NCBI GenBank assembly: GCA_900128565.1
Contig: LT639098.1
Coordinates: forward strand, 1 to 1,406
Length of the DNA: 1,406 nt
Reading direction: 5' to 3'
Source of the DNA: Stramenopiles sp. TOSAG23-6
Lineage: Eukaryota
Shown: one piece after another, positions 1 through 1,406 of the stretch
Layout of the letters: every line of letters starts with the position of its first letter
How positions within the stretch are numbered: the stretch's first letter is position 1
Position numbers and translations under genes: made by a program
The notes under the pieces: generated by a model
What the model saw: only the letters and a program-made list of their open reading frames with translations
Told to the model about the DNA's origin: nothing
Databases searched by the model: none

Positions 1-142
1 AAAAATATAAAAAAAATGTAAAAAAAATATTTAAAAAAAAATGTAAAAAAAAAAAATGTAAAAAAAAAATATAAAAAAAAATATAAAAAAAATATAAAAA
101 AAAATATAAAAAAAATATAAAAAAAATATAAAAAAAAAATGT
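1..142. repeat. Degenerate tandem repeat A(8-12)-TRT, 12 units, period 11-15 bp
   Basis: TAT/TGT spacers start at 6, 17, 28, 42, 57, 70, 82, 93, 105, 116, 127 and 140, separated by A runs of 8-12. The array is truncated by the window edge. Confidence 0.92.
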
Positions 143-155
143 AGGGTTAGGGTTA
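142..155 (+). repeat. Short telomere-like tract TAGGG-TTAGGG-TTA
   Basis: About 2.3 exact TTAGGG units lie between the A-tract array and the intron donor. Confidence 0.7.
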
Positions 156-160
156 CGTAC

Positions 161-575
161 TATATTGTGTCCGTAGTAAAGAAACACTCACTGAATCCTT
201 TGGTAAAAATACTTTTGTATTATGTTTTGTACTACTTTTTGTATCTACCAAAGTATGTTCTAAATGATGTCTTGCCAAACGTTCAAATAAACTGATTTTT
301 AGTGGATGAGGAGAATTGTTAGGGTTAGGGTTTTGTGAATGAGGCAAACTATTACATCCAAACTCATCTTGTTTTGTATTTGTTGTATTTGTTGAATTTG
401 TTGTATTTGTTATATTTTCATCATCATTTATATAATGTACATTTTTTTCTGATAAAACTGTAGGTGGTAATTGGCAATGGTCTCCTGCCAAGACTAGTAA
501 ACCATTATTACTTAATCTACAAATAGGAACAAGGGCTTCTGGTTCTTGACATTGAGACGCTTCATCTAATAATAC
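161..575 (-). CDS. UPF1-like SF1B helicase, exon B (Walker B, motif III, start of AAA_12-type domain)
   Basis: The translation shows Walker B VLLDEASQCQEP, motif III LVLAGDHCQLPP (GDHCQLPP = 485-462), SLFERL (293-276) and LRTQY plus the first base of the expected Arg of QYR (176-161). The motif order continues exon A exactly. The 575 boundary is inferred from restoring FDL|VLLDEASQ and is uncertain by a few nt. Confidence 0.88.
318..332 (+). repeat. Short telomere-like tract G-TTAGGG-TTAGGG-TT inside exon B (encodes NPNPN)
   Basis: There are 2.5 exact TTAGGG units. The minus strand reads AAC CCT AAC CCT AAC. Confidence 0.7.
374..411. repeat. 9-bp coding tandem repeat (TTGTATTTG) x4, encoding TNTTNSTNTTNT
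   Basis: Units at 374, 383, 392 (one mismatch) and 401. Confidence 0.9.
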
Positions 576-667
576 AAGTATTGTGAAAAAATATTTCAAA
601 AAAAAAACGTTAGGTACGAAATTTCGTATGAAAACAAAATTAAATTATAAATTCATGTAAAACATAC
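576..667 (-). other. Putative 92-nt intron or insertion with GTATGT donor but no in-phase AG acceptor
   Basis: The minus strand has GTATGT (667-662), an in-frame TGA (655-653), a CTAAC branch-point-like motif (613-609) and a T10 tract (607-598). The segment changes the reading frame between two collinear helicase blocks. Removing 92 nt gives FDLVLLDEASQ. The exact borders are ambiguous because of a 7-bp direct repeat. Confidence 0.75.
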
Positions 668-1406
668 AAGATCAAATTCAAGATTTTTTAATGTTGCACT
701 TCCACTACTAGCACAGGTGCAACACAACACACGAGCATCACCAAGAATATCTCGCATTGCATGATTACGTATAGCATTATGAAATTTTGAACTTTCTTGT
801 GCTTCTCTTGTTGCATGTTTAACATTTTGTCTTGTCTGAGGATCAGAAGAAATTAAATTTGTTTCTACAGCATATCGAAGTTCCGATAATGAATTTTCTT
901 TTAATTGTTGAGCAGCATTCCAACCATTATCTTTTGAATCACTCAATCGTGATTCCATTGATAAAGACAACAAATTTTGTCTAATTTTTGATTCATGACC
1001 AAGACGAATAGCAGGAACGTCAAGTTGTTGAAGTTGAGATAAAAGAGCATCTACACCGACATTTGATGGTGCTGTGACTAATGCCATTCCTGTATTAGGA
1101 TTTCCACTAGAATCTGGACGATCTAACCACTCTTTAACAAGATGTGCAATTGAAAATGTTTTACCTGTACCAGGTGGACCTTGAATTAAGCTAAGTTTTT
1201 GACCTGGTGCGAGTGCTGTTTCAATACTTTCTCTTTGACTTTTGTTTAATCTTTTTTCATTGTTTGTTTTTTCGTTTTGACTTTTGTTTAATGTTTTTTC
1301 ATTGATTGTTTTGTTTATTTTGTTTATTTTGTTTTTTTTGTTATTACTACTATTATTTTGTAGTAATAAACTTCGTTCCATTGGATTATTTTGTAGTAAT
1401 AAACTT
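668..1406 (-). CDS. UPF1-like SF1B helicase (DNA2/NAM7 family, AAA_11-type domain), exon A, 5'-partial
   Basis: The translation shows the Q-motif LNKSQRESI, Walker A LIQGPPGTGKT (GPPGTGKT = 1180-1157), motif Ia TAPSNVGVD (1075-1049), IRLGH, and VLCCTCASSG followed by LKNLEFDL. The frame stays open upstream of the ORF-track ATG (SLLLQNNP-MER) to the window edge, so that ATG need not be the start. The exon is taken to end at CTT|GTATGT. The last ORF residues (VCFT*) are probably read-through into the intron. Confidence 0.92.
1234..1312. repeat. 42-bp-period in-frame tandem duplication (KTxNEKxLNKSQ x2)
   Basis: 1234-1270 and 1276-1312 match at 35 of 37 nt. Confidence 0.9.
1309..1334. repeat. 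9-bp coding repeat (TTTTGTTTA) x~3, encoding NKINKINK
   Basis: Units at 1309, 1318 and 1327 (partial). Confidence 0.75.
1352..1406. repeat. 33-bp-period direct repeat (SLLLQNN x2), truncated by window end
   Basis: ATTATTTTGTAGTAATAAACTT is identical at 1352-1373 and 1385-1406. Confidence 0.9.

Follow-up and report, generated by a model that had tools for sequence, protein, structure and literature searches.

The 1,406-nt stretch of DNA analysed here (the window: Stramenopiles sp. TOSAG23-6, GCA_900128565.1, contig LT639098.1, positions 1-1,406) codes on its minus strand for a superfamily 1 (SF1) helicase of the Upf1-like/SMUBP2-like type (Pfam AAA_11), and the Walker B motif of that helicase is split by an insert. 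An AG is the near-universal 3′ end of introns, and this insert has no usable one. We think it likely that the insert, 667..576 on the minus strand, is a copy of a high-copy, transposon-like family of introns (introners) in an AT-rich uncultured marine protist. Four observations underlie this view: the insert belongs to a repeat family, it has a common anatomy with a second copy elsewhere, exact removal leaves two different genes colinear with their homologues, and neither copy offers a usable AG. We infer that removal takes place in RNA, through a U2-type spliceosome whose recognition of the 3′ splice site is relaxed, and that the family has spread by DNA transposition.

The insert in the helicase gene and the effect of its exact removal

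The helicase domain is interrupted without being otherwise disturbed. Exon 1 matches AAA_11 (E 2e-31) over profile positions 2-215 and exon 2 over positions 217-257, so that the domain is colinear over the junction. Exon 1 aligns with residues 356-549 of P0002, the closest full-length relative (42% identity with exon 1 as query), the last aligned residues being FDL, and exon 2 (VLLDEASQC..) begins at residue 550; a second relative, P0001 (55% identity), has FDMLLLDEASQC at the place of the junction. Translated without splicing, the gene runs ..FDLVCFT and stops. When the 92 nt of 667..576 are removed it reads ..FDLVLLDEASQCQEPE.. in an open frame of 387 codons, with Walker A (GPPGTGKT) in exon 1 and Walker B (DEASQ) regained only by this removal. 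Given the exact colinearity with P0002 and the continuity of the Pfam profile, a functional helicase needs exactly the 92-nt removal; the motif restored by loss of the element and one copy of a flanking dinucleotide is DLVLLDEASQ.

Protein searches with the exons found no close relative. Among proteins of similar length exon 2 was matched best at 64-65% identity, with about 30% of the query aligned, and exon 1 at 33%; P0001 and P0002 were the best of the longer proteins for exon 1.

An original prediction, made from the letters of the window alone, had described the minus strand as carrying CTTGTAT at 670-664 and again at 578-572, with GTATGT, CTAAC, a T10 run and a TTAG ending at 566 (Table 1), and had concluded that the insert lacks a usable AG acceptor. 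Recomputed from the window, every one of these coordinates holds. The AG at 567-566 is the sole AG between the start of the insert and a point 12 nt past it, and both ways of using it fail as predicted. Joining GTATGT to AG566 shifts the frame and gives ..FDLMKRLNVKNQKPLFLFVD followed by a stop (17 codons), and joining GT663 to AG566 gives ..FDLVYEASQ.., in which the catalytic Asp of Walker B is lost. The eight equivalent registers of the 92-nt unit have the borders CT-TA, TT-AC, TG-CT, GT-TT, TA-TG, AT-GT, TG-TA and GT-AT; not one is GT-AG, GC-AG or AT-AC. Borders of the GY-AG form (Y, C or T) found in the Micromonas, Aureococcus and Chrysochromulina families are likewise missing from all eight registers of the window copy and from the six registers of the second copy, L001, described below. 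The 7-bp repeat itself exceeds chance: among 1266 positions tested for a straddling repeat at a 92-nt offset, a length of 7 occurs only in the eight registers of this repeat, and the next longest is 4.

Table 1. Positions of the insert, its parts and the neighbouring exons and intron in the 1,406-nt window
Feature	Position	Strand	Remarks
Removable unit	576..667	minus	92 nt, GT..TT register; 90-nt element plus the 3′ TT copy
Element proper	578..667	minus	90 nt, GTATGTTTTA to CACAATAC; ends identical in L001
Alternative element span, if the duplication is 4 nt	579-666	minus	
5′ splice-site-like GTATGT	662..667	minus	Carried by the element; identical in both copies
Perfect 14-nt palindrome TACGAAATTTCGTA	615..628	minus	Conserved core; opposite-strand self-match; identical in L001
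CTAAC, branch-point-like motif, in TACCTAACG	609..613	minus	34 nt before the unit's 3′ end; identical in L001 (40 nt)
T10 run (pyrimidine tract)	598..607	minus	Position 607 differs from most family members
3′ terminal motif, T-run then CACAATAC	578..591	minus	Conserved; identical in L001
Flanking dinucleotide TT, 5′ copy	668..669	minus	Remains in exon 1
Flanking dinucleotide TT, 3′ copy	576..577	minus	Final two bases of the removed unit
First AG past the branch motif	566..567	minus	Within the LLD codons; unusable (frameshift and stop, or Walker B Asp lost)
Exon 1	668..1405	minus	5′ end open at window edge; contains GPPGTGKT; ends ..LEFDL
Exon 2	161..575	minus	VLLDEASQ..AGDHCQLPPTV..LLRTQY; aligned with P0002 residues 550-643
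Next intron, start	1..160	minus	GTACGT (160-155), followed by AACCCTAACCCTA and a T-rich tandem array (11-12 nt); leaves the window

A second copy and an abundant repeat family

A scan of metagenome contigs with a 19-nt core pattern returned one locus, L001, in which a 104-nt unit on the minus strand interrupts an unrelated gene in the sense orientation. The two copies have in common their first 10 nt (GTATGTTTTA), a 22-nt core (TACGAAATTTCGTACCTAACG) that holds the CTAAC branch-like motif, and their last 13 nt (TTTTTCACAATAC). From the 5′ end to the core, and again in the T-run, they differ in sequence and length. The gene that hosts L001 is conserved, with 34 phmmer relatives at E up to 0.001, and a Pfam search of it returned nothing significant. 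Its exon 1 ends at residue 127 of the homologue P0161 (..KVTT / ..KVQT), its next exon (SFPRNFRKA..) begins at residue 129, and a codon split into T and GG supplies W128; the eight homologues listed all have T, then W, F, Y or H, then PR.F.K at this junction. The colinearity with P0161 means that the L001 copy also needs exact removal. Taking away the element and one flanking dinucleotide thus gives exact colinearity with homologues in both copies. Neither copy has an AG between CTAAC and the junction, and a cut at the first AG would make the removed unit 10 nt longer in the window and 26 nt longer in L001, with the frame shifted in both. In the public protein sets the L001 gene occurs only as a 170-residue open reading frame (ORF), P0144 and P0178, which reads into the intron and ends ..KVQTCMF; the P0144 cluster has two members, both of them unspliced ORFs.

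The bases around the two copies bear on where the element ends. Only three kinds of register are common to both: GT..WT (W, A or T; GT-TT in the window and GT-AT in L001), WT..AC and TA..TG. The flanking dinucleotides match within each copy and differ between copies (TT/TT in the window versus AT/AT in L001), and the base before the dinucleotide (C) and the base after it (G) are the same in both. With C and G fixed, the duplication should be either 2 nt, the element then running from G to C, or 4 nt (CTTG or CATG), the element then running from T to A. A 4-nt CWTG duplication was our first reading and is now only the alternative. Among the family pieces listed whose low end lies in 571-581, 6 of 14 stop exactly at 578, a pile-up that fits C578 as the last base of the element and favours 2 nt. 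Judged from these flanks, 2 nt is the preferred length of the duplication, with 4 nt possible. A non-canonical intron or an introner-type gain, the leading options of the original prediction, fits both the repeat family and the AG-less copy at L001, but the 7-bp repeat is not the target-site duplication (TSD), which would be 2 or at most 4 nt. The longer repeat arises where coincidence or target preference lengthens this short duplication: exon 2 starts with GTAT as the element does, and in exon 1 the TT follows a C, which is also the base that closes the element. As for the cut, GT..WT seems preferable to WT..AC because it falls at the G of a perfect GTATGT; mRNA alone cannot separate the two.

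The wider family became visible when contigs from four runs were placed on window positions 150-1300 at 88% likeness. X2 comes from the same sample as the likely source, in a different run; X3 and X4 are other seawater runs, X4 being an RNA library; X5 is from another study and another year (2024). The records placed numbered 1584 (X2), 530 (X3) and 234 (X4). Summed contig depth, which differs from copy number and which we take only as a sign of very many copies, reached 1,425,352 over the bin 579-617 in X2 versus 155-171 on the helicase exons, 25,202 versus about 3 in X3, and 9,660 versus 2.7-3.9 in X4; in X2 and X3 the bin thus exceeds the flanking exons about 8,000-9,000-fold, and over the insert body, 579-656, the sum in X2 was about 1.4 million. 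The insert is a member of a very abundant repeat family, hugely repeated in the contigs of X2, X3 and X4. Among 32 pieces listed, 17 lie within 571-669 with 2-6 differences each and must therefore be other copies, not the helicase locus. At position 607 a different letter accounts for 847,285 of 1,000,776 of the family depth in X2; L001 has this majority letter too, directly after its 22-nt core.

The helicase locus itself was recovered beyond the original assembly. In X2, record 1 spans 150-597 and another contig spans 611-1213, each with 0 differences; both contigs are unique and break off within the element, at 597 and 611, the pattern that a high-copy repeat should produce. Record 25 of X5, a 219-nt contig, spans 369-587 with 1 difference, which the tabulated letter differences do not include. 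An independent sample thus shows the AG-less 3′ border as well, and since that contig carries the insertion, the insert is not a private lesion, an amplification artefact or a peculiarity of a single cell.

Several other matches were set aside. Contig joints from 338/339 to 578/587 and from 409/416 to 578, together with rows in which a contig appears to go back on itself, have sides of 20-31 nt at 88% likeness and connect the family region to the low-complexity stretch 338-416; we read them as cross-matches of other copies and not as events at the locus. A scan of genome contigs with a two-part pattern gave six loci (L002-L007), all chance matches in which only the two typed parts match, and two pattern scans of viral contigs returned 0 and 0 loci.

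The surroundings of both copies have features of their own. In L001, an ordinary-looking GTAAGT donor (1389-1394, minus) follows a short exon 72 nt past the family intron; a single gene therefore has a canonical-type intron next to a family intron. A tandem triplication (880-1010, minus) of a unit of about 58 nt (..AAGAATATTAAAAAATGTTTATTACCTTGAAG..) separates the two L001 genes. In the window, homologues go on TQYRMH after exon 2, which requires a split Arg codon at the next intron, and the start of that intron is occupied by a T-rich tandem array (1-140, minus) of period 11-12 nt, about 11 copies and a GC content of 3-6%. Within exon 2, at 310-446 (minus), a low-complexity insert of 33 residues relative to P0002, rich in N and T, sits between helicase motifs; it includes a 9-nt tandem repeat at 374-417 and attracts cross-matching contigs. 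Since P0001 has a shorter, partly alignable loop there, this stretch is coding and not another intron. The 5′ part of exon 1 (1241-1406, minus), the N-terminal region, is also of low complexity, with SLLLQNN twice, EKTLNKSQ followed by EKRLNKSQ, and 22-nt and 9-nt tandem repeats. A telomere-like hexamer repeat, AACCCTAAC, occurs three times in the window (146-154 and 318-332, minus), with 0 expected and 0 of 200 shuffles matching it: one copy directly follows the GTACGT donor of the next intron, and two overlap in exon 2, where they code NPNPN. It recurs at L001 1289-1297, in an intergenic or intron region beside an inverted TTAGGGTTAGGG, and may be a second repeated element. An Rfam search of the window at E up to 1 gave 0 matches.

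How the element may be removed

We suggest that an element of roughly 90-102 nt brings with it GTATGT as a yeast-like 5′ splice site, a core with the 14-nt palindrome and the branch motif TACCTAAC, a T-run and a fixed 3′ end, CACAATAC, and that insertion would flank it with a short target duplication, TT in the window and AT in L001. The pre-mRNA would then lose the element and one copy of the dinucleotide, as a GT...TT unit in the window and a GT...AT unit in L001. In other words, the 5′ site and the branch signals would be the element's own, and the duplication would contribute the two final bases of what is removed. The 3′ cut would be set by the end of the element itself, two bases past ..ATAC, and not by an AG. 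The distance between the branch-like A and the 3′ end is 34 nt in the window and 40 nt in L001, while the terminal ..CACAATAC is identical; the cut would therefore keep a constant place relative to this terminal sequence and not a constant spacing from the branch.

The invariant parts of the element, GTATGT, TACCTAAC and the T-run, are those that a U2-type spliceosome reads, and both copies are sense-oriented within otherwise intact, conserved coding sequence; it is for these reasons that we read the family as introners. The choice of 3′ site could depend on a changed U2AF-type recognition, as reported for Fritillaria, or on the reading of the terminal ATAC motif. RNA folding does not support a mechanism in which the intron ends pair to set the 3′ cut; in the fold, the 5′ GUAUG is predicted to pair with an internal CAUAC and not with the 3′ end. 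A bolder scenario, to which we give slightly less than even weight, is that the major spliceosome no longer requires an AG in one entire class of introns: a DNA transposon that is active and makes 2-nt duplications would seed thousands of GTATGT...CTAAC...ATAC+WT introns, and the 3′ cut would be made through the terminal motif or a G+1:U-1 contact, with nearby AGs skipped.

Some observations weigh against the introner reading. No contig joining 668 to 575 was found among those placed, the RNA run X4 covering 150-243 and 961-1111 with no cover on 423-539, and no spliced or insert-free form was found in public protein sets. The termini of the element are inverted only weakly (GTAT/ATAC, plus GT after a 1-nt offset), and the fold of the 92-nt unit (minimum free energy -10 kcal/mol, z -1.28) has no end-to-end helix. 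Duplication length, orientation bias and target preference rest on two flanked copies (n=2). As to abundance, the element is AT-rich and some of the placed pieces could be low-complexity cross-matches, and depth is, as noted, no count of copies.

Part of this evidence is what one would also see if the insert were a plain miniature inverted-repeat transposable element (MITE) that is never removed, with the helicase gene or allele broken and the splice-like motifs incidental. The missing AG and RNA junction speak for this reading, as do the two public ORFs of the L001 gene that stop within the element. We consider this unlikely. Apart from the insert, both host genes are intact, with conserved sequence to either side of it, both copies are in the sense orientation with GTATGT, CTAAC and the T-run as their invariant parts, and the insertion persists in the independent sample X5; a family so abundant in coding exons would presumably be lethal if it stayed in the message.

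Removal by a minor (U12-type) or U12-like spliceosome, tolerant of varied 3′ terminal dinucleotides including GT-AT, would also account for the borders, and we rate it lower. The branch motif of U12 introns typically lies roughly 10-20 nt from the 3′ end, whereas TACCTAAC, which loosely resembles TTCCTTRAC, is 34 and 40 nt away, and GTATGT matches the yeast-type U2 5′ site at six of six positions. For Physarum, one report (10.1101/2020.10.12.336362) gives GT-AT as a known minor variant of U12-type introns, a branch motif 9-12 nt from the 3′ end, and a 5′ site of [G/A]TATCCTT. The 5′ end of the element, GTATGTTTT, departs from the Physarum form [G/A]TATC[C/T]TTT only at +5, but that position is G, and not the conserved C, in both copies; the site [G/A]TATCCTT is unmatched, since GTATGTTT in both copies has G at +5 and T at +6.

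There is a slimmer chance that the excision takes place in DNA, in the manner of the internal eliminated sequences (IESs) of ciliates, the element and one copy of the repeat being cut from somatic DNA. The element is short and AT-rich, interrupts coding sequence, is flanked by a dinucleotide of which one copy stays behind, and on exact removal restores the gene, all of which would suit such a process. Against it, every DNA contig at the site holds the insert and none the joined form (although contigs can hide rare forms), GTATGT, CTAAC, the T-run and a sense orientation in two of two copies are needed by RNA splicing and not by DNA excision, and the flanks are TT and AT, whereas Paramecium IESs are flanked by TA. 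Lastly, it is very improbable that the 3′ border has a real AG masked by faulty assembly or sequencing, as the original prediction had allowed, for although the repeat is high-copy, with contigs breaking at 597 and 611, and had to be bridged by the assembler, record 1 of X2 and record 25 of X5 give the same border and the L001 copy ends alike without an AG.

Known intron families and what the finding would mean

Introners are the best-supported route of bulk intron gain in genomes. Introners with a 5′ site of their own and a 3′ site derived from the TSD are described, for example, in Chrysochromulina sp. (4-bp TSD) and as Micromonas pusilla IE1 (3-nt TSD) (Gozashti et al. 2022, PMC9860276; review PMC11282704). 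As in those cases, we find many look-alike short introns in unrelated genes and what is probably a short flanking duplication, with an element that would bring GT and the branch signals, a duplication that would give the last bases, and an mRNA left unchanged after removal. The difference is that in Chrysochromulina and Micromonas the duplication supplies AG, giving GY-AG introns, and here it would supply TT or AT and no AG. The survey in PMC9860276 began from annotated introns and so presumably could not have seen a family of this kind.

Non-canonical introns derived from MITEs and flanked by TSDs are known from Fritillaria borealis (Henriet et al. 2019, as cited in PMC11282704), where Soo et al. 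(2026, PMC13326754) connect changed recognition of the 3′ site with U2AF paralogues that have diverged. A transposon origin, TSDs, exact removal despite non-AG 3′ ends and an implied change in 3′ recognition would be the points of likeness. Fritillaria introns mostly begin with AG (AG-AC, AG-AT) and have terminal inverted repeats (TIRs), unlike the element described here, with its perfect GTATGT, strong CTAAC and minimal TIR; no register of the unit begins with AG, and borders of the AG-AC or AG-AT type preceded by exonic TAC do not occur.

The introner elements of Amoebophrya carry hairpin-forming inverted repeats of 8-20 nt and direct repeats of 3-5 nt and lack fixed dinucleotides, and U1 small nuclear RNA was not found in that organism (Farhat et al. 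2021, PMC7789003). They too are repeated introns of a marine protist, with non-GT-AG borders and direct repeats overlapping them, and in both systems the cut cannot be placed from mRNA alone; the family reported here differs in its fixed 5′ site and in having no predicted terminal hairpin. The nonconventional introns of euglenids lack a pyrimidine tract and pair +4..+6 with -8..-6 (PMC11282704). Their non-canonical borders, TSD-like junction repeats and suspected MITE origin would have counterparts here, unlike their end pairing: our element has a T-run and CTAAC, and terminal inverted repeats joining the intron ends, whether of the Amoebophrya or the euglenid type, are absent from the predicted fold of the 92-nt unit.

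In the literature searched we found no published family with a fixed GTATGT, CTAAC and a WT 3′ end, though tables in the supplement of PMC9860276 could list relatives. What appears new is an introner-like logic with WT in place of AG at the 3′ end, the window copy being a GT-TT form that splits a helicase Walker B motif. Described introner families keep the GT-AG rule because either the duplication or the element supplies the AG.

A practical consequence is that standard gene callers truncate genes at elements of this family, as P0144 and P0178, which end inside the intron, illustrate, and protein catalogues of the lineage are therefore fragmented. If our reading is true, textbook 5′ and branch signals combined with a TT or AT end would mean that the spliceosome can place its second cut without an AG. 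This protist would then offer a natural system in which the choice of 3′ splice site is uncoupled from AG, and what defines that site would become testable.

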